DNA of 64,000 nt from Candidatus Moraniibacteriota bacterium (GTDB taxonomy: Bacteria > Patescibacteriota > Minisyncoccia > Moranbacterales > UBA1568): assembly GCA_016699875.1 (NCBI GenBank), contig CP064989.1, positions 252,326 to 316,325 on the forward strand. The letters are read 5' to 3'. A program made the position numbers and the translations under genes. Within the stretch, counting starts at the first letter, position 1; every line of letters begins with the position of its first letter. The notes under the pieces were generated by a model that made no database searches, was not told where the DNA came from, and saw only the letters and a program-made list of their open reading frames with translations. This document shows, in pieces, positions 6,949-53,343 of this stretch.

Positions 6949-7899
6949 TTATTTCCGTTCGATCACTTCTCGAATACCGTAATTCATCGAATGATGACTT
7001 CTGTAGTACGCACGAATCATCATATCCGTCATGAGACCAAAAATAAAGAGCTGAATGCCCGCAAGAAGCAAGAAGACGCCGATCATAGGCCAAATGCGAT
7101 CCGAAAGCGATGCGCCAAAGAAGACTTTCTCCACAAACATCCAAAAGAGAATCCCCGATCCCAAGATAGAAAGCAAAAAGCCGCCGCCGCCGAAGAGGTG
7201 CACCGGGCGATGCGAGTACTTCCGCCAGAACCACACGGCGAGCATGTCGACAAATCCCTTCACGCTCCGCTTCCAGTTGTATTTGGTGACGCCATGCACG
7301 CGCGGATGGTGCGAAACCGGCACCTCCGCCACACGGAAACCCTTAATCTCAAGAAGCGCCGGAATAAACCGATGCATCTCACCAAAGAGATCGAAGTCCT
7401 CGAAACATTCCCTTCGAAACGCTTTGAGACTGCAGCCCGAATCGTGAATATTGTCGTGAATGAGAATGGTACGCAGCATGTTCGCGCCGCGCGAAAAGAT
7501 CTTCTTGCTCAAAGAATCTTGCCGCTTCACCCGCCATCCGGAGACCACATCATAGCCCTCGTCGAGCTTCGCAAGAAGAAGCGGGATATCAGCCGGATCA
7601 TTCTGCAAATCGCCGTCCATCGTAATCACAATATCGCCCGTCGCCCGCTTGAAACCTGCGTCAAACGCCGCGCTCTGTCCGAAGTTCTTGCGGAATACCA
7701 CGAGCGTAAGTGGCGAAAGCGCATGGCATTTCTCGAGCGTCGCGTCCCTCGACCCGTCATCGACAAAGATGATCTCATATAACTCACCGAGCTTCTCCAA
7801 GGATTCCTTGATGCGCCGATGGAGTTCCTCGACATTCCCCTCTTCGTTATAAAGCGGAACAACAACCGAATACCGAACCCGCCCGGAATCTGTTTCCAT
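6949..7899 (-). CDS. GT2 polyprenyl-phosphate glycosyltransferase (DPM1/ArnC-like)
   Basis: YSVVVPLYNEEGNV, FVDDGSRD and DGDLQNDP (DxD) motifs, with two C-terminal TM helices. Confidence 0.8.
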   Translation of the reverse strand: METDSGRVRYSVVVPLYNEEGNVEELHRRIKESLEKLGELYEIIFVDDGSRDATLEKCHALSPLTLVVFRKNFGQSAAFDAGFKRATGDIVITMDGDLQNDPADIPLLLAKLDEGYDVVSGWRVKRQDSLSKKIFSRGANMLRTILIHDNIHDSGCSLKAFRRECFEDFDLFGEMHRFIPALLEIKGFRVAEVPVSHHPRVHGVTKYNWKRSVKGFVDMLAVWFWRKYSHRPVHLFGGGGFLLSILGSGILFWMFVEKVFFGASLSDRIWPMIGVFLLLAGIQLFIFGLMTDMMIRAYYRSHHSMNYGIREVIERK

Positions 7900-8131
7900 A
7901 AAAAGAAAAACAAAGCCCCTACCGCCCTATTGTACCAAACCCCCGCCCAGAGGCAAGGAAAGCCCCTTTCTTCATTGTCGGTTCAGACAAGGTCAGACAA
8001 TATCCACCTTTCAAGAGCTCCTCTCAAGAGACAAAACTCTGATTCCTCCACTCCAATTAGAACAACAAAGAATCGAATCAAGAAAAATCCGCCAAAGAAG
8101 AATACTCTCTGGCGGCACTACACATCATGCT

Positions 8132-11068: not shown

Positions 11069-11959
11069 CTATCTCACCACTACCTTTGCCGGACGAATCA
11101 CTCTCGAGCCACTCTTGTATCCCATCTGGAGCATCTTCGCCACCTTGCCCTCTTCCGCTGATTCGCCTTCTTCTCGACTTACAGCTTCATGCACATGCGG
11201 ATCAAAGGTATCGCCTTCCTTCACTTCGAATGCCGAGATGCCATTCGTCGCAAGCGCTTCTTCGAGTTGCTTTCCGATATAGGTAATACCCGTCATCCAT
11301 GCATTCTCCTTCTCCGCTTCCGGCACATGCTGCGCTGCCATGCGAAAGTTGTCGATCACCGGAATAATATCGAGCGCAAATCGCTCCGAACTCATCGCCG
11401 ACAATTCTCTCATCCGCTCTTCCTGCCGCCGCCGATAATTCTCAAAATCCGCCGAAATCCGCTTCACATCATTCAAATATTCCCGCTCTTTGAGTCGTTC
11501 GACAGCTGCCGATATAAAATACTTTGCCATGCTGCCAAACTCATCATTCTGAGCAACTTCTTCCGCTGTCACCCATCGATACTCACTGTGTTCCGAGCTC
11601 AGCGTAATATCCTGCGAAGAAGACATTTGCACTGTATATCCGAGAGTCAACACGCGTTTCTTTCTATATTCAGCTAAGAAAACCCCAGATTGTTTCAAGC
11701 TCTCATCAACATCAAAGCCAATCTCTTCTCCAAGTTCTCGAGACAAAGAGTCTTCAAGACTTTCCGCAACATCCACCCGACCGCCGGGAAAATCCCACAC
11801 ACCGTACTTTTGAACGAAGAAACTTTCTATATCGGCAATCTTCAACATCAAGAACACTTTCTTCTCAGGATCATACACCACTATCTTTTGCGATATCTGA
11901 AAGAGTTCATGTCCTTTCTCATCTACTATAAATTTTCCATCAACAACTTTTGTTTCCAT
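11069..11959 (-). CDS. grpE: NUDIX hydrolase domain fused to nucleotide-exchange factor GrpE
   Basis: N-terminus carries a perfect NUDIX box, GRVDVAESLEDSLSRELGEEIGF (Gx5Ex7REUxEExGU). The C-terminus aligns with GrpE (DFENYRRR, IPVIDNF, FDPHVHEAV, GYKSGSRVIRPAKVVV). Both lie in one uninterrupted ORF. Start placed at METKVVD. Confidence 0.8.
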   Translation of the reverse strand: METKVVDGKFIVDEKGHELFQISQKIVVYDPEKKVFLMLKIADIESFFVQKYGVWDFPGGRVDVAESLEDSLSRELGEEIGFDVDESLKQSGVFLAEYRKKRVLTLGYTVQMSSSQDITLSSEHSEYRWVTAEEVAQNDEFGSMAKYFISAAVERLKEREYLNDVKRISADFENYRRRQEERMRELSAMSSERFALDIIPVIDNFRMAAQHVPEAEKENAWMTGITYIGKQLEEALATNGISAFEVKEGDTFDPHVHEAVSREEGESAEEGKVAKMLQMGYKSGSRVIRPAKVVVR

Positions 11960-11975
11960 AAAATTTTTCCAAAAA

Positions 11976-12722
11976 CTAGTGCAACACAATAAACATTGCA
12001 ATCACTCCCGCCGATCCGCCCAGCATGCGCTTCATGTATTCCAAAAGAGATTTGTTCTTCGCATACTTCATGCGCTTCGGACCGATGATAGCAAGAACCC
12101 CTCGATCACCGTCGGCGTTCTGATAGGGTGATACCATCATAGCGCAGTTGGAAATTTCCTTGATCGGGTTCTCCTCGCCAATGAATATCTTGACTTCGCC
12201 GTCTTTCATCTTGGACAAAAGCGTATCGATATTCTCATCAATCGAATCGAGCGCCTCCACCAGTCGACACACTTCGTCGAGCTCCTGAAACTCCGGCTCA
12301 CCCATCAATTCCTTCATGCCGAAATCATAGAATTCGTCGCGACTCACAATACCGGACACCGCAAGACTCCCCGAAAACGCCGAGAGAAGCTTGGCAGTCG
12401 TCCGTGCCAATCGAGCGTTCCGCGCCTCAAGCACCAAGAGCTCCTTTTTCAATTCTGCTTCTTCTTCCTTTGAAAGAGCCTCGTCTTTCATCCCATGCTC
12501 GATATAAAAGCGATACCCCTTGTCGGTTGGAATACGCCCCGACGAAACATGCGGCTGATAGAGATACCCCTCTTCTTCCAAAGTCGCCATATCGCTCCGC
12601 ACCGTCGCCGACGACACCGGCAGATGAACCCGCGAGAGAAGCACTTCGGAACCGACCGGGAGTGCACTTTTCGTATAGAGTTCTACGACCGCCGAAAGAA
12701 TAGTTTTCTGTCGCTCATTCAT
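11976..12722 (-). CDS. hrcA: Heat-inducible transcription repressor HrcA (short form)
   Basis: N-terminal winged-helix region (MNERQKTILSAVVELYTKSALPVGSEVL) and position as the first gene of the hrcA-grpE-dnaK operon directly downstream of a CIRCE. Start set at the internal Met so the gene does not overlap the CIRCE. Confidence 0.75.
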   Translation of the reverse strand: MNERQKTILSAVVELYTKSALPVGSEVLLSRVHLPVSSATVRSDMATLEEEGYLYQPHVSSGRIPTDKGYRFYIEHGMKDEALSKEEEAELKKELLVLEARNARLARTTAKLLSAFSGSLAVSGIVSRDEFYDFGMKELMGEPEFQELDEVCRLVEALDSIDENIDTLLSKMKDGEVKIFIGEENPIKEISNCAMMVSPYQNADGDRGVLAIIGPKRMKYAKNKSLLEYMKRMLGGSAGVIAMFIVLH

Positions 12723-14070: not shown

Positions 14071-14436
14071 ATGCGTTTCTATCAGTCGCCCATCAAAAAT
14101 CCTGCCGCCACATCACTCTCGTTTCTTCTTGGAGCAGTGGTGATCACGGCGATCGTCCTCTCCTTGCGTGTCGCTGACTCCGGTCGACTCGCTCAAAATG
14201 CCGAGCAAACCACCGAAACAATTCCTATCGACCCGGCACTGTCCGAAACACAACGCATTATCCAAGAAGACCGCGAGCAAAAACTCAAGAGCTCCACTCC
14301 GGCACTTCAGAAAACTATCACCGAAACCAAACCAGTCAAAACCACGACACTCGTCCCCTCATCAACAAGCACCTCCTCTTCCTCATCCAGCTCCACGACA
14401 ACGAAAAAAGCAGATAGAACTACAAGAACATCCTGA
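14071..14436 (+). CDS. Small membrane-anchored Ser/Thr-rich protein
   Basis: One N-terminal TM helix followed by a low-complexity S/T-rich tail (SSTSTSSSSSSSTTT). Confidence 0.4.
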   Translation: MRFYQSPIKNPAATSLSFLLGAVVITAIVLSLRVADSGRLAQNAEQTTETIPIDPALSETQRIIQEDREQKLKSSTPALQKTITETKPVKTTTLVPSSTSTSSSSSSSTTTKKADRTTRTS

Positions 14437-14465
14437 CAACGCCACGATAAAAAATCTAAGACGCT

Positions 14466-14846
14466 ATGAAAAAACAAGTTGTCATCCTTCTCTCTTCACT
14501 CATACTTATCCTCGGCACAAATGCCCTAGTAACAGAGCGGTATGTTTCGCATGCCGAGGATGATGACGATGAGGAAGAGTATGAAGACGAAGATGAAGAC
14601 GATGATCGAAGCAGTAAAGACTCCCAACAAGACGATGTCGAGTCTGAGAAGACAAGCGTTACCAAAGAGACAACTCTTGTGCCGGTGACAACCATCACCC
14701 AGCAGGAAGTAGCCACAGTGCTCACCGACAGCGACGGAGACGGACTCTACGACAATGAAGATCCGCATCCGGACATCCCTGAAATCTACATCGTACGCGA
14801 TGACAACAAAAACGGCATCGCAGACTACCTGGAAACCTCGCCGTAG
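14466..14846 (+). CDS. Secreted acidic protein with a Ca-binding (thrombospondin type-3-like) motif
   Basis: Signal peptide (MKKQVVILLSSLILILGTNA), a D/E-rich stretch, and DSDGDGLYDNEDPHPD (DxDxDGxxDxxD). Confidence 0.5.
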   Translation: MKKQVVILLSSLILILGTNALVTERYVSHAEDDDDEEEYEDEDEDDDRSSKDSQQDDVESEKTSVTKETTLVPVTTITQQEVATVLTDSDGDGLYDNEDPHPDIPEIYIVRDDNKNGIADYLETSP

Positions 14847-14869
14847 CATTTCTCCCTTTCGGAACACTC

Positions 14870-15847
14870 ATGACTCCGAATCACCCAAACACGAAGGAGG
14901 CACTTCTCTCAACGACCCGTCTCTTTCGCGCTATGGGAACGGAGACATACCTCGAAATAGTCCACCGAAAAGGCGAGGAAAGGAAGGCCGAACAAACCCT
15001 GGCAAGCACAGTAAAGGGCTGTTTTGAAAAGATACGGATTTTCAATCGCTTCGATCCCGAAAGCGAACTCTCGGAATTCAATCGTCATCTCGGGAAATTC
15101 CGAAATGCCTCGCCGGATATGCTCGCTCTCGCACTTCACACTCTCTCGTTCCATAAAGAAAGCAACGAACTCTTCGATCCGCGCATCCTGTCAATTCTCA
15201 AGCATATCGGGTATGATGCGGATTTCTCCAAGATGCCTGCAAGCCTGCCTGTACTGGAAAAGTTATTCTCTCCTCGGACAGCGCCTCTGAGAAGCGAGCT
15301 TTCTGTATGGGGTGAAATGATACGATTCGAGGCGCCGATGGACTTTTCCGGAATAGCCAAAGGGTATATTCTGGACAAAATGGCCGAGCGGATACGGCAA
15401 GACGACTGGTCAAACTTTCTCGTTGACTCCGGCGGCGATATGGTGGCATGTGGCACGAATCGCGCGAGAGAAAAGTGGCGCATCAGTGTCGAGAACATAC
15501 CTGAAGAGTCCGCTCTTTTTGAAATGACAAACCAGGCGATTGCCACCTCAGGCATCACCAGAAAACACTGGGTGTCTTCCCGAGGAAAACACTATCACCA
15601 TCTCATTCATCCAAAACACCCGAACAATTTTTCATTCAATCTTCTGTCAGTCACCGCAATCTCAACATCTGCCGAGCGTGCCGATTTTCTCGCCAAGACG
15701 CTGTTTCTCATGGGAATTAAAGACGGTTTTTCTTATGCAAGCAAACATTCCATCCCCGCACTCTTCGTTCAAGCAAAAGCCAAAAACCCAACAACCAATC
15801 CTTGGATCATGACCCCGAAGATAAAACCATTCCTCGCCAAACAATAA
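14870..15847 (+). CDS. apbE: ApbE-family FAD:protein FMN transferase
   Basis: RLFRAMGTETYLEI (AMGT signature) and the conserved ApbE core. Confidence 0.75.
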   Translation: MTPNHPNTKEALLSTTRLFRAMGTETYLEIVHRKGEERKAEQTLASTVKGCFEKIRIFNRFDPESELSEFNRHLGKFRNASPDMLALALHTLSFHKESNELFDPRILSILKHIGYDADFSKMPASLPVLEKLFSPRTAPLRSELSVWGEMIRFEAPMDFSGIAKGYILDKMAERIRQDDWSNFLVDSGGDMVACGTNRAREKWRISVENIPEESALFEMTNQAIATSGITRKHWVSSRGKHYHHLIHPKHPNNFSFNLLSVTAISTSAERADFLAKTLFLMGIKDGFSYASKHSIPALFVQAKAKNPTTNPWIMTPKIKPFLAKQ

Positions 15848-15858
15848 ACTCTCCCACT

Positions 15859-16776
15859 ATGAAGATATCTACTCTCGTATTTACTGCCGCTATTGGAGCG
15901 CTTCTTCTTGCTCCGGCAGCCACTCGCGCCGCAGACACTTCCGACCCCATATCCTACCCCGACGGACCCGTGCTCGATTCCGATCTCGACGGATTAACCG
16001 ACATTGGAGAGACGACGCGTTTCCAAACCGACCCGAAAAATCCCGACAGTGACAGCGACGACTGGTACGACGGCACGGAAATACTGGCGCAAACAGATCC
16101 GCTCGACCCGACATCGCCGTCGGCGACCGTCATCGTTACCTCTGATCCGTCTTCGGTGCAGGTGCCCTGGGTCTGGTATGTCACGCGCGCTTCGGGACTC
16201 ATTGCTTTTGCCTTCGCATGGCTCGCCATTTTCCTTGGTATTGCCGTCCGACTTCCCATTCTCAAAGATATCATTCGCCCCGCCTATTCCCTCTCTGTTC
16301 ACTACACCATTGCTGTTCAGACGCTCTTCTTTGCTCTCCTTCATGGCATAAGCTTCCTCTTTGATCCGTTCATACGGCCAACAATTGCCGATGCATTTAT
16401 TCCCTTTCATATAGCCGCCGATAAAATCAATCCTCTTTCGCTCGCGCTCGGCATCATGGCATTTTACGGATTTATCGTTCTCGTCCTCACCAGCTGGATC
16501 AAACCCATGATCCCGCAACGCCTCTGGCGCATCACACATTTCCTCAACATATTCGTATATGTTGCCGTCATCGCTCACGCGCTCCTTCTTGGCACCGATA
16601 TGAAAGTCCCACTCTACCGAAACATTTTCATCAGCGCCAATATATTCCTCATGTCGCTTCTCCTCATGAACTTCGCCCTCAAACTCGCCAACGTCATCCG
16701 CCACACGATTACCAAACAGCAACCGGTACCGGAAGAAATACCTGCTGGCAGTTCAAACACGCAAACCCTCTCTTGA
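15859..16776 (+). CDS. MsrQ/YedZ-like (ferric-reductase-type) heme-binding 6-TM protein with an N-terminal secreted Ca-binding repeat region
   Basis: Signal peptide (MKISTLVFTAAIGALLLAPAATRA). Two DxDxDG-type repeats follow (DSDLDGLTD, DSDSDDWYDG). Then a 6-TM domain with paired His in TM helices (HYTIAVQTLFFALLHG, HFLNIFVYVAVIAHALLLG). Start is the internal ATG 12 nt after the apbE stop. Confidence 0.6.
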   Translation: MKISTLVFTAAIGALLLAPAATRAADTSDPISYPDGPVLDSDLDGLTDIGETTRFQTDPKNPDSDSDDWYDGTEILAQTDPLDPTSPSATVIVTSDPSSVQVPWVWYVTRASGLIAFAFAWLAIFLGIAVRLPILKDIIRPAYSLSVHYTIAVQTLFFALLHGISFLFDPFIRPTIADAFIPFHIAADKINPLSLALGIMAFYGFIVLVLTSWIKPMIPQRLWRITHFLNIFVYVAVIAHALLLGTDMKVPLYRNIFISANIFLMSLLLMNFALKLANVIRHTITKQQPVPEEIPAGSSNTQTLS

Positions 16777-16852
16777 GATAAGTTGCCCTATAAAAAAATC
16801 CCCGAAACCATAACGGCTTCGGGGTTATTTGCAATAAGCATGTCGTCTGGAC

Positions 16853-18532
16853 TTACTGTATCTTTCCAATACTCCTCAGATATCCCTCCGGATATCCATT
16901 CAGCAGGAAAGGAAATACGGCGACTACTTTTCCCGATCCCATTCGAATCGATGACACCAGAGCGAGTTGTCCAGAAAGAAGGTGTTGAGTTGCCGGAAGT
17001 CCGGGACGATACAGCTCGAGCGCTCGAGTACGAAGGTTTTTGATACCATCAACCACTCCCTCCGAGATACCCGGAACATTCCTCCAGAGAAACTGTGCCA
17101 ACTCATCAGATGACATATCAGCCCACGAAGTTTCCCCCCATTCTAGAGCAGACAAGCCTTCGGCAACCTCTTTGGGGACATCTTCGTAAACTCGCTCGGA
17201 AATAAAAACCGGAACCGGACTTTTCACAAATGCAGACACATCGCTTCCAAAACATTCCTCGATGAAAGAACGCTCTCCTTCCGGAAACCGTCCGGCACCA
17301 CGATTCCCTCGCACAATAGAAGCTGCAAAGCCAGCAACATACGAAAGCATAGCTACGCCACCATTACTATATCCATTAACAGGAAATGGCGACGCCATAT
17401 CGTACGGACCACGGGCGAACGTCGTCACAACAACCACACCTTCCTGATGTTGTTTGTACGGATAACCTCCCCCGGAACTCAGAAGATGACCGAGGATCGC
17501 ATTCGAAAGAAGTATCGACATGCGAAGACGGAACTCCACTGAATCTTCTGCAAGAACAGGGAATATCCGTTTCAATTCACTTCGGAGACGCGGCGCCACT
17601 TCATCCCAAATATCCGCGATATACATCCAGAGCCGACGCATACTCTCATCGTAGTGCCGTCGAAAATCAATCTCTCCAACCTGAGATTTCGCTTGTTCGC
17701 ACACATCGAATAGAATACCTCCGTTTTCTGAAAGAACCGCTGTCGAAAGAGTTTTCCTCTCGCGAGCCAGTGCCTCCAAAACAGCCCCGGTGTAGCCTTC
17801 CCGCGTCACGCGATGATCAGAGAGAGATACCCCTTGATCAAGTCCCATGAAAAGAAACCCGCGTTCCACATCAAAAGACGTTTGAATCACGAAAACCTTT
17901 TCACTACTCAAATTACCGTACGCTCGATTCGAAAAATCATGAATCGCAAGGGCAATATCTTTCTTTCGCATCACGTCATTGAGCAAACCACCGTCAGAAG
18001 CCGGGACTCCCGAAGACGCTTTTTCTTCCTCGCCCTTCGCAGCACAGTGACTGTGACTATCTAAGATGACAACTACTCTCCCGAATTTCCTCACTCGATC
18101 ACGAATCTCGCGCGTAAAGTCTCCCTCTACAAGATAGAAACTCCCATCCTTCATACGGAGAGCATCGGAAATATCCGCTGCCGGAGTACGAAACGATTCA
18201 CCGGAAAGTCCAAACACCGTCTCCACAAGAACGCGCCCATCGATACAGAGACATGGGAGGATCTCTTCTAAGGAAGCGCCAATTACGCGCTCCATGAAGA
18301 GACGAGCCTCTTGCATTTTTTCTGACGCCAGATCCGCAACTCGCGCATTCCTTGTCGCGATAAATCCACGAACAAGAAACTGGAGATAACGGACTTCCGG
18401 AGTATTCTTATCCCGAGAGAACAGTTGAGAAAAACTGTCGATGTATCTGTCCACCATAATCATAACTCCTATTGTTAACCGTCGGGGGTTTCCGACAAAC
18501 CAGGGAGAGTATAAAAGAAAAGAGCGTTTCAA
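16853..18532 (-). CDS. Large hypothetical protein with beta-carbonic-anhydrase-type zinc motifs (CsoSCA-like?)
   Basis: CIDGR (CxDxR), then about 65 aa later DSHSHC (HxxC), which is the spacing of beta-CA zinc ligands. 559 aa with non-ATG (TTG) or internal Met start candidates. I recognise no other domain. Confidence 0.3.
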   Translation of the reverse strand: MKRSFLLYSPWFVGNPRRLTIGVMIMVDRYIDSFSQLFSRDKNTPEVRYLQFLVRGFIATRNARVADLASEKMQEARLFMERVIGASLEEILPCLCIDGRVLVETVFGLSGESFRTPAADISDALRMKDGSFYLVEGDFTREIRDRVRKFGRVVVILDSHSHCAAKGEEEKASSGVPASDGGLLNDVMRKKDIALAIHDFSNRAYGNLSSEKVFVIQTSFDVERGFLFMGLDQGVSLSDHRVTREGYTGAVLEALARERKTLSTAVLSENGGILFDVCEQAKSQVGEIDFRRHYDESMRRLWMYIADIWDEVAPRLRSELKRIFPVLAEDSVEFRLRMSILLSNAILGHLLSSGGGYPYKQHQEGVVVVTTFARGPYDMASPFPVNGYSNGGVAMLSYVAGFAASIVRGNRGAGRFPEGERSFIEECFGSDVSAFVKSPVPVFISERVYEDVPKEVAEGLSALEWGETSWADMSSDELAQFLWRNVPGISEGVVDGIKNLRTRALELYRPGLPATQHLLSGQLALVSSIRMGSGKVVAVFPFLLNGYPEGYLRSIGKIQ

Positions 18533-29329: not shown

Positions 29330-30832
29330 TCAATCAATTTTCATACTTTCCCGCCAGAACCGTTCGATAGGCATTCCCGCCATAATTTCGAACATGCGCA
29401 GATACTTAGAAGTCATCTCCTCAACAAGATCCCTAGGAGGAACCCAGCAAGGATTTGTTTTTGGAAAACCAGCTGCCTTCCCTGCATCTCTAATTATTTG
29501 TTTATCCAGACTTGGCGGCGCCTCCCCTCTGTCGAGAGCAGCTTGCCGCTGATCAGCCAACCAAAAACGACTCGAATCAGGCGTCAGAGCTTCATCGCAA
29601 AGCACGATACGACCATCTTCATCATAAGCAAATTCGAATTTCGTATCGGCAAGAATGATACCCAAAGGCCGAAGCATATCTCGAGCGAATTCATACAACC
29701 GAAGGGACAGGTCGCGTATAGTTTCCGCCGCTTCCAACCCGATTCTCTCAACCATATCCTCGAAGTCGATATTCTCATCATGCTCGCCATAGGGCGCCTT
29801 CGTAGATGGAGTGAAAATTGGCTGCGGCAACTCGCTGCCATCGGAAAGTCCGCGAGGCAATTCGATACCACAGACTTTCCCAGTCTGTTGGTAACCAGTA
29901 AGACTGGATCCTGTCAAGAACCCCCGAACAATTGCCTCGATCTGAAACACTCTGACACGCTTCACAACAATCATGTGCCGCATGAGAAAACGCATTTGCT
30001 CAGAACTCAGCACGTATCGGAGACGCTCAGGAAAGTAATCAGTAATAGTGCGGCCAAAGGCTTTGAGATGGTTAGGAATATCTGTCTGAAGCAACCAATG
30101 CACCGTTGCTGCTGTCAAGACGGCTCCCTTCATTGGAATAGCCGCATTGAGCACTCGGTCAAAGATACTCACCCGATCCGTCGCTAAAATATAGAGATAC
30201 TCGAGGCATTCGGGATTGACAAATATTTCCCGTGTCTTCCCGGTATTCCAGTGAATCAGTCCGCCTGATTCCAATAAGGCTATATTAGAATCGGCAGAAG
30301 CTTCCCCTGTATACCTCTGTCGACCCTCGTGATAGGCATTCTGAAGAGTCAGCGTTCTCGACGGTTTTTGCTCCCGCAACTGAACCGTCGGGAATTCTCC
30401 CCGAACGCCGCAAATGGCATACCAGAATGCCTGCGCAGGGTCATGGAAGAACTCTTCCATAAAAACAAACTGCGAATCCGGCACCTCTGTTGCCGCAAGA
30501 TACGCCGCCTGAGTGGCATTCTCCGTCTCGCCCTTCAATGGAACTGCGATAAACAAAGTGTGCTTATTTCCCAACCCATTCCTTGAGATGGAGTCCACAT
30601 AACCGAATATCGCCGCCAATTTCCCGGCACACACAATCACGGCATCTACAGAGCAATCGTTAAATTTTCGAAGCAATTCCCGCAACTCGTCGGGATTCCG
30701 GTGAGCACTGCATACTTCGACTGCAAGAACACAAATTAAGTCCTGCGCCTCCGCCTCGCGAAGCACTGCTAGCCCGGATGCAATTTTCCTGAAATCAGAG
30801 TCCGAACCGCAAAGAACCACTATATTTCTCAT
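29330..30832 (-). CDS. Bifunctional PurE (N5-CAIR mutase/AIR carboxylase) fused to PurC (SAICAR synthetase)
   Basis: N-terminal VLCGSDSD...VCSAHRNP is the PurE signature. C-terminal RGFLTGS, IFTPSTKAPYGEHDENI, ILADTKFEFA and LTPDSSRFW match long-form SAICAR synthetase. Confidence 0.8.
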   Translation of the reverse strand: MRNIVVLCGSDSDFRKIASGLAVLREAEAQDLICVLAVEVCSAHRNPDELRELLRKFNDCSVDAVIVCAGKLAAIFGYVDSISRNGLGNKHTLFIAVPLKGETENATQAAYLAATEVPDSQFVFMEEFFHDPAQAFWYAICGVRGEFPTVQLREQKPSRTLTLQNAYHEGRQRYTGEASADSNIALLESGGLIHWNTGKTREIFVNPECLEYLYILATDRVSIFDRVLNAAIPMKGAVLTAATVHWLLQTDIPNHLKAFGRTITDYFPERLRYVLSSEQMRFLMRHMIVVKRVRVFQIEAIVRGFLTGSSLTGYQQTGKVCGIELPRGLSDGSELPQPIFTPSTKAPYGEHDENIDFEDMVERIGLEAAETIRDLSLRLYEFARDMLRPLGIILADTKFEFAYDEDGRIVLCDEALTPDSSRFWLADQRQAALDRGEAPPSLDKQIIRDAGKAAGFPKTNPCWVPPRDLVEEMTSKYLRMFEIMAGMPIERFWRESMKID

Positions 30833-45628: not shown

Positions 45629-45701
45629 GCGCGCATAGCTCAGCTGGTAGAGCAGTTGGCTCTTAACCAAACGGTCGGGGGTTCGAATCCCTCTGCGCGC
45701 A
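45629..45701 (+). tRNA. tRNA-Lys (anticodon CUU)
   Basis: Hand-folded: acceptor gcgcgca/tgcgcgc, D-arm gctc-agctggta-gagc, loop ctCTTaa, T-arm ggggg-ttcgaat-ccctc. There is a G27-A43 mismatch. Confidence 0.6.
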
Positions 45702-45746
45702 CATAAACACAAGTGGCATAGGCCCCGATAGCCTACTAGCGTCCCT

Positions 45747-45818
45747 GCCCCTGTAGCTCAATGGATAGAGCATGGGACTTCTAAGCCTGTGATGTAGGTT
45801 CGATTCCTACCGGGGGCA
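45747..45818 (+). tRNA. tRNA-Arg (anticodon UCU), anticodon stem poorly paired
   Basis: Acceptor, D-arm and T-arm (gtagg-ttcgatt-cctac) are canonical. The loop is ctTCTaa, but the flanking 5-mers tggga/gcctg pair weakly. Confidence 0.45.
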
Positions 45819-45856
45819 CAAAGAAACAAAAAATACCCTCCGGAAGTCTTCGGCGG

Positions 45857-45931
45857 GGTGACTATCGTTCAATGGTAGGACAGTGGTTTGTGGAACCATC
45901 AACGAGGGTTCGATTCCCTCTAGTCACCCCA
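45857..45931 (+). tRNA. tRNA-His (anticodon GUG) with an encoded G-1 and 3' CCA
   Basis: Acceptor gtgacta/tagtcac, discriminator C, CCA present, extra 5' G, anticodon stem gtggt/accat, loop ttGTGga. Confidence 0.65.
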
Positions 45932-48699: not shown

Positions 48700-48756
48700 A
48701 CGAAAAGCCCTTCGACAGAGTGCTCGAAAGGGCTTCGTGTTCGGACTGGCGGGGAC
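48700..48756. repeat. 57-bp direct repeat, copy 2 (overlaps the 3' 10 nt of tRNA-Asp and includes its terminator hairpin)
   Basis: Identical to 47769-47825. Contains aagccctttcga...tcgaagggctt. Confidence 0.8.
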
Positions 48757-48823
48757 GACCGGGCTCGAACCGGCGACCTTCTGCGTGACAGGCAGACGCT
48801 CTAACCAACTGAGCTACGCCCCC
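48747..48823 (-). tRNA. tRNA-Asp (anticodon GUC), CCA encoded
   Basis: Reverse complement folds as gggggcg-...-tctgc-ctGTCac-gcaga-...-cgtcccc-g-CCA. Confidence 0.7.
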
Positions 48824-48845
48824 AATATAATATCTGCTTCGCGAG

Positions 48846-48919
48846 TACCAGGGGAGAGATTCGAACTCTCGACCCCGGGCTTATGAGTCCCGTGCTCTAA
48901 CCAACTGAGCTACCCTGGC
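48846..48919 (-). tRNA. tRNA-Met family (anticodon CAU); elongator versus Ile2 type is ambiguous
   Basis: Reverse complement folds as gccaggg-ta-gctc...gagc-a-cggga-ctCATaa-gcccg-...-ccctggt-a. Confidence 0.55.
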
Positions 48920-49067
48920 AAATAGTATCAGACACCGCCTCGTTCTGTCCAGACGCAGAAAAGATCGGTGAAATACCACCGTATCGACAGCCTACCAGAG
49001 AAGCAAGTTTCTTTCAAGTAAATTTCGACAATAAAAAAAGCCCTCAGAACCTTGCGGAAATGAGGAC

Positions 49068-49328
49068 TCAAAGTGAAAAATCATGAGACACTCCCAATAA
49101 CATCGCGTAGAATATCCCGAATTTGATCTTTCTTTCATCACTTAAGGAGCTCTTGTAAATAGCAGCACTTACCTCCTCAAAATAATTGCCAAATCCGCGA
49201 AACCTCCCCTGAATCGCCCGTTGCAAGATAATTACCTCTCCGATAGACAGCTCGAGTATATCGCGCAACCGATGCACAACATCAACAACGAACGCCCAGT
49301 CTGCCACACTCATTTCATACACCTCCAC
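49068..49328 (-). CDS. Small hypothetical protein
   Basis: ORF only, sitting in a tRNA-flanked spacer. Confidence 0.25.
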   Translation of the reverse strand: MEVYEMSVADWAFVVDVVHRLRDILELSIGEVIILQRAIQGRFRGFGNYFEEVSAAIYKSSLSDERKIKFGIFYAMLLGVSHDFSL

Positions 49329-49388
49329 ACAAGAAAACAGGTACTACTCCAATATCTACTCCACTCTTCGATTCTCCGCAAGAGTTGC

Positions 49389-51170
49389 TCACTCCTCCAG
49401 AAACCCTCCGGTTTGCTTGTTCCAAAGTTTCGCATAAAGACCACCATGAACAAGCAGTTCTTCGTGCTTACCCTCTTCTTCGATTTCCCCTCCGCGATTC
49501 AAGACTACGATGCGATCGAGCTTGCGAATCGTGCTCAGCCGATGCGCAATGACAACCGCCGTCTTTCCGAGCATAAGCTCATCGAGTGCCTCCTGTATCG
49601 CGTGTTCGCTCTCCGAATCAAGCGAACTCGTCGCCTCGTCCAAAACAAGAATCATAGCATCTTTCAAAATCGCACGCGCAATAGCAATCCGCTGACGTTC
49701 ACCGCCAGAGAGTTTCACGCCGCGTTCCCCAACCAGTGTGTCATATCCTTTCGGAAGCCTTGATATGAAATCATGCGCCTCGGCTTGCTTGGCGGCCGCT
49801 ACCACCTCTTCATCCGAAGCCTCCGGCCGACCATAGGCAATGTTTTCACGAATCGACCGATGAAACAACATCGGCTCCTGAGGCACATAGGCGATATGCG
49901 AGCGAAGATCGTCTTGACGAATATTACGGATATTCTGTCCGTCAACGCGAATTTCCCCATCTTGCGGATCAACAAATCGAAGAAGAAGCTTCGTCACCGT
50001 CGACTTCCCCGCGCCGGAAGGTCCGACGATTCCCACCTTCTCTCCATCTCGGATAGCGAGTGAGAAATCCGTAAACACATTCTCGCCATCGGAATATTTG
50101 AAATAAATATTTTGGAACTCAATCCGCCCTTCCTGCATCCGATCCAATTCGGGATGCTTCGGATCAAGCACATCCGGCGCCGCATCGAACACCTCTATCA
50201 TTTCATCTGCATAGGCAAGGCTCCCGGTCATTTTCGAAAATATCCGACCAACAGCAAAAAGCATTTGAGCGATAGAAGTGATGTATATTTGCACCAATAC
50301 AACCGTTCCGGTAGAAATCATTCCTGCAAGCCAGAGCCGAATTGCCCCATACATACCGCCGATTTCTAAAATACTCAGAAGACTCATCTGAACAATAAAT
50401 GTAAGATTCTGAAAATTCCACGCTCGACGACGCAACTTTTCCTCAACGTCGGTCGATTCCTCAAACTGATGTTGCTCTCGAGTACCCGATGAGAACATCT
50501 TCACGGCGAGCATATTCGAAACAACATCCGAAAGTCTCCCGACTACCACGGAATCTTGTTCTGCTACAGCCAAATCATACGGGGCCTTCTTTTTTGAAAG
50601 CCACCAAGCCGTCAGAAGATAAAGTGCTGTCCAAACAAAGAATCCCGCCCCAAGAATCGGGGAAAGAACAAGCAGCGTCGCCAATATGCCAATCAAATTA
50701 ACCAGCGTCATCCATGCCGAAAAGACCACTTGGTCAAACAAATCTTCAAACGATTTTACATATCGCTTTGCTTTGGCCACCAAACTCCCAACAAAATTCC
50801 CCGAAAAGAAATGATAGCTATGCTGCTCCAAAGCAGAGAACGTCCGATCGGACACGTGTTTCATGACACGACTCTGCACATATACGATCGCATAATCCCC
50901 TATCCGATAGAGAACTTGGTAGGTAGCAATACAAGCAATAAGCCAGTAAAAATCCTGAAGGAGACGTTCGGAAACATCGCTTCGAATATTCGCTGTGGAA
51001 ACCGTATCAATGATGTTCCGGTAGACCAGCGGGAAAATTGCATGAGATATGATCGCCGCCAGTCCATACGCGACAAACAAGAGGATCGTCAAAAACCAGT
51101 ACCCCTTAAACGAAGGCGCGTAGGACAAAAAAACTCGTTTCAATAAATTGTTCGATTTCCGTTCCGACAT
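49389..51170 (-). CDS. ABC exporter with fused permease and ATPase domains (MsbA/ABCB-type)
   Basis: 6-TM domain followed by Walker A GPSGAGKST, the signature LSGGERQRIAIARA, and Walker B ILVLDEATS. Confidence 0.85.
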   Translation of the reverse strand: MSERKSNNLLKRVFLSYAPSFKGYWFLTILLFVAYGLAAIISHAIFPLVYRNIIDTVSTANIRSDVSERLLQDFYWLIACIATYQVLYRIGDYAIVYVQSRVMKHVSDRTFSALEQHSYHFFSGNFVGSLVAKAKRYVKSFEDLFDQVVFSAWMTLVNLIGILATLLVLSPILGAGFFVWTALYLLTAWWLSKKKAPYDLAVAEQDSVVVGRLSDVVSNMLAVKMFSSGTREQHQFEESTDVEEKLRRRAWNFQNLTFIVQMSLLSILEIGGMYGAIRLWLAGMISTGTVVLVQIYITSIAQMLFAVGRIFSKMTGSLAYADEMIEVFDAAPDVLDPKHPELDRMQEGRIEFQNIYFKYSDGENVFTDFSLAIRDGEKVGIVGPSGAGKSTVTKLLLRFVDPQDGEIRVDGQNIRNIRQDDLRSHIAYVPQEPMLFHRSIRENIAYGRPEASDEEVVAAAKQAEAHDFISRLPKGYDTLVGERGVKLSGGERQRIAIARAILKDAMILVLDEATSSLDSESEHAIQEALDELMLGKTAVVIAHRLSTIRKLDRIVVLNRGGEIEEEGKHEELLVHGGLYAKLWNKQTGGFLEE

Positions 51171-51245
51171 ACCCCGAATATAAACACAACTTTTTCAGAT
51201 GAAATATCCCCATCAAAAGACGGGGATATTCCGAAAACTCATTTT

Positions 51246-51320
<75 letters not shown>

Positions 51321-51375
51321 GCAATGTCGCGACAGTATTTTCGATAGTACAAGAATCCCCCTCAAACGTCAATCG

Positions 51376-51449
51376 GTGGGCGTGCCAAGACTCGAACTTG
51401 GGACCTCGACATTATCAGTGTCGCGCTCTAACCACCTGAGCTACACGCC
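51376..51449 (-). tRNA. tRNA-Ile (anticodon GAU)
   Basis: Reverse complement folds as gggcgtg-ta-gctc-aggtggtta-gagc-g-cgaca-ctGATaa-tgtcg-aggtc-ccaag-ttcgagt-cttgg-cacgccc-a. Confidence 0.7.
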
Positions 51450-51546
51450 CGAAAACCAACAGCACGCCGGACATCATCCGACTCTCCGTAGCATCCTATC
51501 AAAAAGACCCGAGGAGCGCAAGATTCCTCGGAATATACGCCGAATG

Positions 51547-52218
51547 TCAACATTCCAATAAATGACCATTTTCTTTGAGCCACTGCCGCTCACGAGCAAA
51601 CCCTGGGCATATTTCTGTAACAACATGCCAAAATTTTTTCGAATGATTCGGATGTACGAGATGCGCCAATTCATGCGCCACCACATAGTCGATAACCGAG
51701 AGAGGCGCCATAACGAGCCGAAACGTGAAATTAAGATTCCCCTTTCCGCTGCATGATCCCCAGCGCGTCCGCGCGGCATTTATACGAATAGACCCGTAGA
51801 CGAGCCCGTGCTTTCGAGCATAAAAGGCAACTCGCTCAGTAAGCACCTTTTTCGCCTCTCGCCTATACCAGGAGCGGAATCGACCATTCGCTTGATTCAA
51901 AAATCGCGAAAGAAGCACAAATTCACCACCCATAAAATCCACTGACAATTTCCCGGACTCTGATATTCGAAGCGGATACTGTTCCCCAAGGTACCGGAAC
52001 AGTTCCCCATCAACGTACCTTCGTGTTTTCCGGGAAGCCAGTGCCCGCATACGATCCACAGCCCGACGAACCCACTCCTCATGACAATCGACAAATGCTC
52101 CAACAAACTCCGCCGATATCCGAAACGGTACGCGCACTACAACAGTCGCATCCGGTTTTACAACCAGTGATACGCTCTTGCGCTTTGAACGAACCAGCGT
52201 ATAAGGAAATTCCGACAT
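51547..52218 (-). CDS. YgjP/DUF45-like (WLM/SprT-type) zinc metallopeptidase
   Basis: HELAHLVHPNH (HExxH plus a downstream His) at the C-terminus. Start set at the internal Met (MSEFPY). Confidence 0.6.
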   Translation of the reverse strand: MSEFPYTLVRSKRKSVSLVVKPDATVVVRVPFRISAEFVGAFVDCHEEWVRRAVDRMRALASRKTRRYVDGELFRYLGEQYPLRISESGKLSVDFMGGEFVLLSRFLNQANGRFRSWYRREAKKVLTERVAFYARKHGLVYGSIRINAARTRWGSCSGKGNLNFTFRLVMAPLSVIDYVVAHELAHLVHPNHSKKFWHVVTEICPGFARERQWLKENGHLLEC

Positions 52219-52333
52219 ATATCTTGAGGGACGGAAACGAACGTTCAGTAGAACGTATAATACCGCGAAACACAAAACGTCGCCATGTTATGCTGGCGAC
52301 GTTCACTTGTTTCTCCGGAAAACACGAACGATA

Positions 52334-53158
52334 TCAGTTGCAACGATCAAAAGCCGGGAGATGTTTCTCTTGCGATGCATTCATAAGATTCGTGAAGACA
52401 CTGGTAATATCCGGATACTCAGTCACCGCCGGAAGCAATTTCTCTCGGTAGAGCGCCGCATTGGCGATTTCAGCATCAACACCCGTCTGACAAGCCGTTG
52501 TAATACTGTCCGGAGCCGTCACTTTCCCAGTCCACGGATCCGCCGGCACAGCGATGCCATACTTATCAAGAAGCGCTTTGAGCGAGGAAATGTGCTGCTC
52601 TTCTGCGCGGATAATCATCGAAAAAGGTCGGATAGAACCGAATTTTCCAATAACTGCTTCATATGTCGCGTGCGCCTTGTACTCATCATCAATCGCCAAA
52701 AATATCGCTTGCTTCGCCTGATCCGAAAGAGTTCCCGCCGGATACTCAAGTCCGTCAACCGCAAGGCACTCATCCGCCACACACTCATTCTTCCCGAGCG
52801 CGCGACCTCCCTGACCATTCATCATTCCCGCACCCTGTCCCAAGCCCTGGTTTTGCCCCTGACCTTGCCCGCCATTTTGTTGCATTCCTCCCTGCGATCC
52901 ACGATTTTGATTCTGCCCTCCCGCACCATTAAATTCACCATTGCGATTGCGCCCGTCATCATTCCAACGGTTGCGAGCGCCATAACCACTCCCACCACCA
53001 TCACGAAACATACTGCCGCGACCACTGTCGAAATCCGCCCGACCGGCAACCTTGCCGACAGCATACCCCGCTACTCCTCCAAGAACCAACACGCCGACAC
53101 CTACGGCAACCATCTTTCGCATCGGAGTCATTGCTCCGAGCATCTTTGAAATCTCCAT
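52334..53158 (-). CDS. Membrane-anchored protein with a Gly/Asn/Gln-rich low-complexity linker and a ferritin-like (DUF2202-like) C-terminal domain
   Basis: TM anchor (VAVGVGVLVLGGVAGYAV), a GGQNQNRGSQGGMQQNGGQGQGQNQGLGQG linker, and C-terminal DDEYKAHATYEAV...RAEEQHISSLKALLDKYG. The listed ORF extends through tRNA-Ala, so I trimmed it to the Met at 53158. Confidence 0.4.
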   Translation of the reverse strand: MEISKMLGAMTPMRKMVAVGVGVLVLGGVAGYAVGKVAGRADFDSGRGSMFRDGGGSGYGARNRWNDDGRNRNGEFNGAGGQNQNRGSQGGMQQNGGQGQGQNQGLGQGAGMMNGQGGRALGKNECVADECLAVDGLEYPAGTLSDQAKQAIFLAIDDEYKAHATYEAVIGKFGSIRPFSMIIRAEEQHISSLKALLDKYGIAVPADPWTGKVTAPDSITTACQTGVDAEIANAALYREKLLPAVTEYPDITSVFTNLMNASQEKHLPAFDRCN

Positions 53159-53240
53159 ATATCCGAAATTTACAAAATTAACGAAAAACATTCCCCCACG
53201 TATATAGTATACTACGAACCAAAACTCTTCTGTTTGCAAC

Positions 53241-53266
53241 AAAAAACAACCCGGAAAGGGTTGTCC
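53241..53266 (-). terminator. Intrinsic terminator downstream of tRNA-Ala
   Basis: caaccc/gggttg stem followed by TTTTTTG on the minus strand. Confidence 0.5.
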
Positions 53267-53270
53267 CGTG

Positions 53271-53343
53271 TGGACTGTAGGAGATTCGAACTCCTGACCC
53301 CCGCATTGCAAATGCGGTGCTCTACCAACTGAGCTAACAGCCC
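53271..53343 (-). tRNA. tRNA-Ala (anticodon UGC)
   Basis: Reverse complement folds as gggctgt-ta-gctc...ccgca-ttTGCaa-tgcgg-...-acagtcc-a, with the G3-U70 identity pair. Confidence 0.7.

Follow-up and report, generated by a model that had tools for sequence, protein, structure and literature searches.

A conserved ApbE and di-haem protein cassette with a candidate flavinylated membrane tether in Candidatus Moraniibacteriota

We analysed a stretch of 64,000 nucleotides (nt) from a Candidatus Moraniibacteriota bacterium (contig CP064989.1), hereafter the window, in whose numbering all coordinates are given. Positions 14071-16776 hold four closely packed genes on the + strand in the order sp1-sp2-ApbE-FRD, FRD being a ferric-reductase-domain protein. 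In the list of open reading frames (ORFs), sp1 (14071..14436) encodes a membrane-anchored protein of 121 amino acids (aa) and sp2 (14466..14846) a protein of 126 aa that is predicted, also from its family alignment, to be secreted. ApbE (14870..15847, 325 aa) belongs to the family of FAD:protein FMN transferases (PF02424), and FRD (ATG 15859..16776, 305 aa) carries PF01794. The gaps measure 29 nt (sp1/sp2), 23 nt (sp2/ApbE) and 11 nt (ApbE/FRD), and all four ORFs lie on the + strand, just as an earlier sequence-only reading of this DNA had described them: co-directional and tightly spaced. A GC-rich, terminator-like hairpin without strand assignment (16800..16824; 11 pairs, 7 of them GC, then a T-run) sits between the FRD gene and a convergent minus-strand gene of 559 aa; it is likely the end of the operon and may serve as a bidirectional terminator. 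As set out below, the operon belongs, as a variant, with the MsrQ-like flavinylation-associated systems described in the literature and not with MsrPQ, and its first gene encodes the best candidate substrate for its ApbE.

The four proteins of the cassette

The window ApbE matches PF02424 with an E value of 9.9e-48 (163.4 bits against a cut-off of 25.6), residues 22-299 covering profile positions 1-266 of 266, and its best match in PDB is V. cholerae ApbE (6nxi, E 1.2e-20). Judged by its sequence it is a true ApbE family member, and its earlier identification as such holds. His244 (nt 15599-15601) aligns with the catalytic H257 of the V. cholerae enzyme (YHH244LIHP versus YSH257IIDP), in a column anchored by the H257G mutant entry 6nxj. 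This position is invariant in 33 ApbE clade members, and the other family-invariant residues are strictly kept. At metal site 1, for which D280 and T284 (through OG1) are the ligands in E. coli ApbE (PMC4767422, Table 3), the Asp is retained (D272) and Lys276 (nt 15695-15697) stands in for the Thr. The resulting ADxxAK motif occurs in 112 of 120 clade members, against Thr in all five aligned solved ApbEs; in PDB alignments the ADFLAK of the window lies beside ADGLAT, GDGLST and ADGWDT (V. cholerae, L. monocytogenes and S. enterica ApbE).

The 120 closest ApbE clusters are all about 305-325 aa long, with a median of 9 residues ahead of the N-terminal GT motif. A hydrophobic N-terminal segment is absent from 106 of the 107 clade members, and the ORF list offers no in-frame start upstream of 14870 for the window gene. 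By standard criteria ApbE is predicted to be cytosolic. Because it lacks a signal peptide, the module is not the wholly extracytoplasmic one that had been supposed from the sequence. The single clade member with a hydrophobic N-extension, P0150 (385 aa, 84 residues before GT), either is a variant anchored in the membrane or owes the extension to a gene call that starts too far upstream.

Sp1 comprises a basic N-tail of 9-15 aa, one transmembrane (TM) helix, a conserved helix (Q61/I64/R68/E69/L72) and a disordered tether of about 45 aa rich in T, S, K and P. Its AlphaFold model has helices at 11-45 and 55-75, and residues 79-114 score below 50 in the predicted local distance difference test (pLDDT). 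Sp1 has no match in Pfam or NCBIfam; the window copy is 100% identical to an NCBI protein from a Candidatus Moraniibacteriota metagenome-assembled genome. The two small proteins had been described as acidic and as secreted or anchored; sp1 is indeed anchored and sp2 is secreted with an acidic tract, but sp1 itself is not acidic.

The sp1 family forms 196 clusters at 50% identity and is weakly conserved overall (mean column identity 26%; about 20-25% identity outside the tail) except at its extreme C-terminus, where 216 of 236 representatives end in T-[KR]-x-S-COOH with T(-3), K/R(-2) and S(0) near-invariant. The tail was present in 108 of 113 word-indexed matches, and when 1.84 billion proteins were searched exhaustively with a profile, 108 of the 124 representatives newly obtained had it too. 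With D or N at position -6 in 52 of 108 sequences, the candidate consensus reads [DN]-x-x-T-[KR]-x-S. The window sp1 is the only one among 548 window ORFs to end in T[KR]xS.

The canonical ApbE motif consists of seven residues, D-x-x-[S/T]-G-A-[S/T], with FMN on the last one, and ApbE requires only such a short peptide (PMC12052999). Disordered C-terminal extensions are proven ApbE substrates (Huang et al. 2024, PMC11334425). The hydroxyl spacing of the sp1 tail equals that of the canonical motif: the C-terminal heptapeptide of the window sp1, D-R-T-T-R-T-S-COOH (14413..14433, + strand), a candidate non-canonical FMN attachment motif, fits it at D(-6), T(-3) and S(0) and has R-T instead of G-A. 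Four of the 20 non-conforming sp1 tails carry [ST]G[AST][ST] in their last 8 residues, a number reached in none of 20000 shuffles. One of these tails, in P0372, has the exact SGAT (N-V-K-S-G-A-T, with N at -6; p ~0.013), which is not present elsewhere in residues 40 to -8 of the 236 sp1 sequences. P0372 is an orthologue, 55% identical to a normal sp1, and lies within an intact sp1-sp2-ApbE-FRD cassette (locus L171).

As had been noted before, none of the four cassette proteins contains [ST]GA[ST], and none matches PF04205. A search of the 64-kb window for canonical substrates found no FMN_bind protein among the carriers of [ST]GA[ST]. These matches were rejected as substrates: they are out-of-frame ORFs, a phosphoribosyltransferase-domain protein, a UDP-glucose dehydrogenase and an unannotated ORF of 472 codons, and the sole strict D..[ST]G[AG][ST] match falls in an unannotated frame of 101 codons. 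Sp1 carries the best candidate flavinylation site. The sequence-only reading missed it because the site is not [S/T]GA[S/T].

At one further locus (L146), a surface-type protein of 658 aa, repetitive and Ser/Thr-rich by eye, ends in ...TTKTTKSS (SSSSTTKTTKSS); its gene stops 6 nt before that of an ApbE which has no FRD in its vicinity. It is the second of two overlapping ORFs (L146:3199-6190) that have an identical N-terminal portion of ~220 residues, which indicates a tandem duplication.

FRD matches PF01794 in the Pfam scan (E 2e-8; 34.8 bits versus a cut-off of 28), and so do 44 of 46 FRD homologues. Its AlphaFold model (pLDDT 82.8) shows a signal-peptide helix followed by five TM helices, rather than the six TM helices first counted, and short FRD homologues consist of the five TM helices alone. 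According to the model the signal peptide spans residues 1-24 (nt 15859-15930). It is followed by a predicted TSP3-type Ca-binding N-domain (residues 33-84, nt 15955-16110), assigned from family matches to PF18884, and by the five-TM core (residues 104-287, nt 16168-16719), assigned from PF01794 and the model; all three lie on the + strand.

Two His pairs, H148-x13-H162 and H227-x12-H240, are placed on two TM helices, and all four residues are invariant in the 46 homologues. In a profile search of PDB, both pairs aligned residue for residue with those of S. pneumoniae NOX (SpNOX, 8qt6), and the same search also matched STEAP4. Foldseek with the FRD model ranked SpNOX, STEAP2, STEAP1, DUOX1 and NOX5 at the top. 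The invariance and the alignment support the earlier suggestion that the paired TM histidines are haem ligands. Sequence and model together support the assignment of FRD to the NOX/STEAP/MsrQ superfamily of bis-haem membrane proteins. Since the N-domain is secreted, H148 and H227 are, by analogy, the inner (cytoplasm-facing) haem ligands and H162 and H240 the outer ones, in agreement with NOX. The Pfam scan detected no NAD or FAD domain in FRD, and an NCBIfam scan gave no MsrQ equivalog model at E <= 0.1.

The FRD N-domain (Y33...E74) is better conserved than the TM core. PF18884 (TSP3_bac) is matched by 32 of the 46 family members (best E 3e-11), and in a profile search of PDB the N-domain matches the Ca-binding region of Bap (7c7u). 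The window FRD itself reaches 13.7 bits, below the cut-off of 25 bits. Of the two DxDxDG motifs attributed to the window protein, DSDLDG at residue 40 stands; the second is DSDSDD, at a place where homologues have DSDGDG.

Three further motifs in FRD were considered and rejected. The linker 'SPSAT' (residues 90-94) was taken as a possible cryptic flavinylation site, but its Thr is not kept in more distant homologues. 'RASG' at the start of TM1 is a general feature of the FRD family, and its S/T position is variable (A or G in several homologues). A C-terminal 'ENIRQ', viewed as a docking motif in some FRDs, proved an artefact of ORFs running into an overlapping DUF167 gene, and the same 'match' also turns up in loci with ApbE alone. 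At L113:7913-8569, L115:7926-8612 and in several other FRD homologues, the FRD ORF enters the start of a DUF167 (YggU-like) gene in another frame, an overrun that creates a spurious 'conserved' C-terminal ENIRQ...FRRRI motif.

Sp2 begins with a signal peptide, and a conserved Ala precedes the start of the mature protein. A poly-Asp/Glu tract of 15-20 residues and a T-rich linker follow, and the C-terminus is formed by a conserved domain of ~36 aa, delimited by alignment, that contains two Ca-type loops (residues 88-123, nt 14727-14834, + strand). The residues D88, D90, D92, G93, D99, H101, P102, I109, V110, D112, N116, G117 and D120 are invariant in the family alignment. The Ca-type motif common to sp2 and the FRD N-domain had been pointed out from the sequence, and it is present (DSDGDGLYDNEDPHPD). 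No significant Pfam match was obtained for sp2, TSP3 included.

Conservation and architectures

Dozens of Moranbacteria/Parcubacteria loci show the same order, sp1-sp2-ApbE-FRD, at 35-96% identity, and this gene arrangement is far beyond chance. It occurs in at least four genomic contexts, that of the window and three others (CorA; Metallophos...enolase; amidase...rpoB; nrdDG...DUF167-ComEC). The full cassette is present in six GTDB representatives: a scan of GTDB genomes returned six full-length FRD loci, the other matches being unrelated TSP3-repeat proteins. The prediction of a conserved functional module, for which homologue synteny was looked up, agrees with this recurrence.

In addition, 80 metagenome loci were gathered with an ApbE profile and scanned with hidden Markov models of all four proteins, and contingency counts were made on non-redundant loci having enough flank. 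Three architectures were found: the full cassette, a minimal sp1-ApbE-short FRD (L113, L115, L118, L122 and L139) and ApbE alone. The short FRD, which lacks both the signal peptide and the TSP3 domain, opens directly at a PWxWY motif, and these loci have no sp2. FRD and tail-bearing sp1 are both present in 33 loci and both missing from 8, with 1+1 discordant, and the TSP3 domain and sp2 are both present in 24 and both missing from 8, again with 1+1 discordant, counts that are inflated by shared ancestry, as all loci stem from one lineage of the Candidate Phyla Radiation (CPR). The first co-occurrence places sp1 with FRD, and the core of the cassette is sp1, ApbE and FRD. The first small protein, earlier regarded as a mere accessory, has the closest link of all to the core. 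The second co-variation pairs sp2 with the TSP3 N-domain of FRD as an optional, co-inherited extracellular add-on of predicted Ca-binding type, which probably anchors the unit or binds an acceptor.

Some ApbE homologues vary outside the metal site. Beside two deviant sp1 tails (SGATR and TGTT), the ApbEs at L171:879-1850 and L168:2744-3655 are altered in the GGD motif (NGSGD and LGRD) and keep Lys276; the GGD changes may be co-adaptation or decay. A reversion of K276 to Thr where the sp1 tail turns canonical was looked for in these same two loci and not seen, and two cases do not permit an interpretation. In ApbE-alone loci of the nrdD-nrdG...DUF167-ComEC context, from which sp1, sp2 and FRD have been lost, the conserved DSGGDM has become NANGDA or NVNGDA (L132, L136 and L137), and L144 retains GGD (NAGGDA); all four ApbEs (~7000-7900) keep HHL[IV]NP and ADxxAK. 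Relaxed selection or a different substrate is suggested by these sequence changes.

A proposed flavin tether and its alternatives

We propose that the operon encodes a flavinylation-coupled transmembrane electron-transfer unit with sp1 as the ApbE substrate, a 'flavin on a leash'. This is our leading reading, held tentatively and with somewhat less than even confidence. Gene content, conservation, co-variation, the His alignment, the ApbE active-site substitution and the invariance of the tail were observed here, and from them we infer the flavinylation of sp1, its compartment and the direction, donor and acceptor of the electron flow. In such a unit, FRD would ferry electrons across the membrane between the inner (H148/H227) and the outer (H162/H240) haem. 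ApbE would link FMN, taken from FAD, by a phosphoester to the terminal Ser of sp1, or to the Thr at -3. The flavinylated sp1 would then be a membrane-tethered carrier that trades electrons with one FRD haem, replacing the FMN_bind protein of the published MsrQ-like systems.

With a cytosolic ApbE, as predicted, two compartments have to be considered. We lean modestly towards the option in which modification of the sp1 tail in the cytoplasm would precede its export, leaving the flavin to act as a tethered extracellular shuttle at the outer haem. With the C-terminus of sp1 outside, a cytosolic ApbE would have to act before export; the C-terminus would be the last part of the chain to leave the cytoplasm, and this route would spare the cell the export of FAD. 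Modification before export has a precedent in Sec-exported adhesins, which are glycosylated in the cytoplasm. Alternatively, sp1 may lie N-out/C-in, and the flavin would be a cytosolic electron entry and a stand-in for the missing dehydrogenase domain of NOX.

The most specific form of the proposal is possible but, taken as a whole, rather doubtful. In it, CPR Moranbacteria would flavinylate a disordered membrane-anchored peptide at its extreme C-terminal residue via T-[KR]-x-S-COOH as a new recognition motif, by means of a Lys-variant cytosolic ApbE, and then export it; such a peptide would be a kind of ApbE substrate not recognised before. Carrying its flavin covalently, it would serve as a tethered shuttle connected to a minimal NOX-like conduit with two haems, a pared-down device for extracellular electron transfer with no need for a folded FMN-binding domain or for exporting free FAD.

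The nearest published relatives are clusters of ApbE with PF01794, termed 'MsrQ-like systems' by Meheust et al. 2021 in eLife (PMC8238504), who define them by a PF01794 gene clustered with apbE or with an FMN_bind gene, a category of 1797 clusters, mostly from Actinobacteria. Those systems (PMC8238504, PMC11334425) resemble the window operon in that a PF01794 bis-haem protein is encoded beside apbE, here 11 nt away, and in that electrons are proposed to cross the membrane towards or away from a partner with covalently bound flavin. They differ in having an exported ApbE, an FMN_bind substrate and an NAD domain, none of which is found in the window operon. In turn, the window operon has a disordered tail-motif protein in the place of the partner, an optional TSP3/sp2 add-on and a CPR origin. 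What is new here is the Lys-variant cytosolic ApbE, the tail-motif tether sp1 and the sp2/TSP3 add-on. Moranbacteria, Patescibacteria and Paceibacteria are not mentioned in the text supplementary files of the eLife survey (PMC8238504), and in the searchable literature we found no paper linking ApbE to Patescibacteria or Moranbacteria.

FRD shares the H-x13-H and H-x12-H pairs and the fold with the NOX TM domain (SpNOX 8qt6/8qq7; csNOX5 5o0t) and with STEAP1/2/4. Unlike these, it is not fused to an FAD/NADPH dehydrogenase or an F420-type reductase domain, its core has five TM helices instead of six, and an extracellular TSP3 N-domain is added. For the cytosolic enzyme, the parallel is Klebsiella pneumoniae ApbE, which, in the account of Bertsova et al. 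2014 given in PMC12052999, has no signal peptide, is cytoplasmic and has as its substrate a soluble fumarate reductase with a canonical motif; in that same account, the localisation of ApbE decides its substrate. The CPR ApbE differs from the Klebsiella enzyme by the T-to-K change at the metal site and by having no canonical substrate nearby. The extracellular electron transfer of Listeria (FmnB/PplA) likewise combines an ApbE-type enzyme with a small surface-tethered FMN carrier fed by a membrane conduit. However, PplA is a lipoprotein with folded FMN_bind domains, unlike sp1, FmnB is extracytosolic and needs exported FAD, and the conduit is EetA/EetB/demethylmenaquinone (DMK), not an FRD cytochrome. 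FMN_red proteins (Huang et al. 2024) carry an ApbE motif in a disordered C-terminal extension, as proposed for sp1, and there it was demonstrated experimentally; their motifs are canonical-like and the extensions fold back on a flavin-binding domain, which sp1 does not have.

Several observations weigh against sp1 as the substrate, in addition to the single-lineage origin of the counts. ApbE occurs alone, without sp1 and FRD, in 8 loci at the same syntenic position, where a search revealed no FRD or sp1 pseudogene remnants; hence ApbE has, or can have, another substrate. Sp1 follows FRD at least as well as it follows ApbE. Its tail lacks the G-A core of all experimentally proven ApbE sites, and SGAT arose in one lineage only, in a tail that is apparently truncated relative to its closest relative. 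The exchange of Thr for Lys at metal site 1 could impair the transferase activity. It should also be pointed out that the basic N-tail of 9 residues and the net-charge bias of sp1 favour N-in/C-out (181 versus 19; the K+R count alone is ambiguous), an orientation that, if correctly predicted, puts the tail opposite a cytosolic ApbE unless it is modified before export.

The persistence of ApbE in these 8 loci and the co-variation of sp1 with FRD are what one would expect if sp1 were a structural or assembly subunit, or the stalk, of FRD, with the ApbE substrate elsewhere, either at S144 or S212 on the cytosolic side of FRD or in a protein outside the operon. The missing G-A core fits this explanation too, which is the strongest competitor, if an unlikely one. 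Within FRD, S212 is invariant and S144 at least 90% conserved; they are placed in the TM3-TM4 and TM1-TM2 loops on the cytosolic face, beside the inner haem ligands, where a cytosolic ApbE could reach them. Neither serine resembles any flavinylation motif, though, and FRD has no canonical one; the position aligned with S212 in a profile alignment is Ala in SpNOX, showing that this Ser is not superfamily-wide. A structural role would also leave unexplained why a fast-evolving, disordered protein has an invariant hydroxyl-bearing C-terminus, and why its deviant tails drift towards SGAT-like sequences.

As PF01794 is the ferric-reductase TM domain, the unit might instead be an assimilatory reductase of ferric iron or another metal, in which FRD would reduce Fe(III) caught by the sp2 acidic tract and the Ca-type repeats, the flavin assisting delivery. 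Some MsrQ-like clusters are tied to VIT1 iron transport (Meheust et al. 2021, PMC8238504), and the acidic tract of sp2 co-occurs with the TSP3 domain. Against it, none of the contexts examined has an adjacent iron transporter (Feo, VIT1 or siderophore genes), and the many short-FRD loci retain the core without sp2 or TSP3. We consider this explanation improbable; it names a possible acceptor, and as such it is compatible with the flavin-tether model and does not replace it.

The Lys found at the position of E. coli T284 in 112 of 120 ApbE members raises the question of whether the homologue is a transferase at all. It could hold FAD permanently, or act as an FAD pyrophosphatase, and dock on the cytosolic face of FRD, where it would take the part of a dehydrogenase or supply flavin as a subunit: the isoalloxazine is exposed when FAD is bound to ApbE (PMC12052999), FRD has no NAD/FAD domain of its own, and ApbE is predicted to share the cytosolic side. 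This is a very unlikely explanation. The strict retention of the catalytic-base His and of the other family-invariant residues argues for retained ApbE chemistry, ApbE is not known to possess a site for NAD(P)H, and the ApbE-alone loci speak against the explanation as well.

Least probable is the extracytoplasmic redox repair of the MsrPQ kind, with ApbE acting outside the cell, to which the sequence-only reading had pointed in part and which finds no support here: FRD is homologous to MsrQ, and some homologues were named YedZ/MsrQ by annotators of the Joint Genome Institute (JGI), but 106 of 107 ApbE members have no export signal, no NCBIfam MsrQ match was obtained, and the four-His NOX-type pattern of FRD differs from the three-His pattern of MsrQ. 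An MsrP-like gene or molybdoenzyme was found neither in the window, annotated to ~45.6 kb, nor in ~45 related loci, which upholds the separation from canonical MsrPQ that had been made from the sequence.

Surroundings of the operon and meaning for the lineage

The window neighbours of the cassette are ordinary CPR housekeeping genes (DnaK, GrpE-NUDIX, HrcA, CorA, DedA and EamA). The grpE gene (11069-12001, minus strand, 310 aa) is fused to an N-terminal NUDIX hydrolase domain, and its orthologue in locus L001 contains both PF00293 and PF01025; it belongs to an hrcA-grpE-dnaK heat-shock cluster with an Hsp20 gene. The ORF of 559 aa convergent on the operon (16853-18532, minus strand) has no match in Pfam or NCBIfam. 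A counterpart of 519 aa lies at the same position in L001, and in other contexts the ORF is unlinked to the cassette. At 29330-30832 (minus strand), an ORF of 500 aa joins an N-terminal AIR carboxylase (PurE-like) domain to SAICAR synthetase (PurC), an apparent purE-purC fusion.

Nine tRNA genes were identified within the window. On the + strand, Glu stands alone at 37.8 kb and Lys-Arg-His form a cluster at 45.6-45.9 kb (45629-45931). On the minus strand, Asp, Met, Met, Ile and Ala lie at 48747-53343, Ile-GAT and Ala-TGC being ~1.8 kb apart. GC skew is negative in all 2-kb bins of 1-64000 (-0.06 to -0.26) and the cumulative skew drops monotonically, which indicates that the entire window lies on one replichore; the + strand is strongly C>G.

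CPR bacteria are viewed as episymbionts that live by fermentation, are poor in cofactors and possess hardly any redox machinery in their membranes. In the survey of flavinylation, CPR were 'strikingly underrepresented', and ApbE genes without signal peptides were dropped (PMC8238504); the near absence of CPR flavinylation there is partly due to this filter. A haem-plus-flavin unit would let Moranbacteria cells dispose of or acquire reducing equivalents at their surface, in an exchange to which a host or a mineral could be the other party. Should the sp1 tail be the ApbE site, flavin transferases would have a broader recognition code than the one known so far, a disordered tether would bear a natural C-terminal 'flavin tag', and the question is raised whether a flavinylated chain can be exported.

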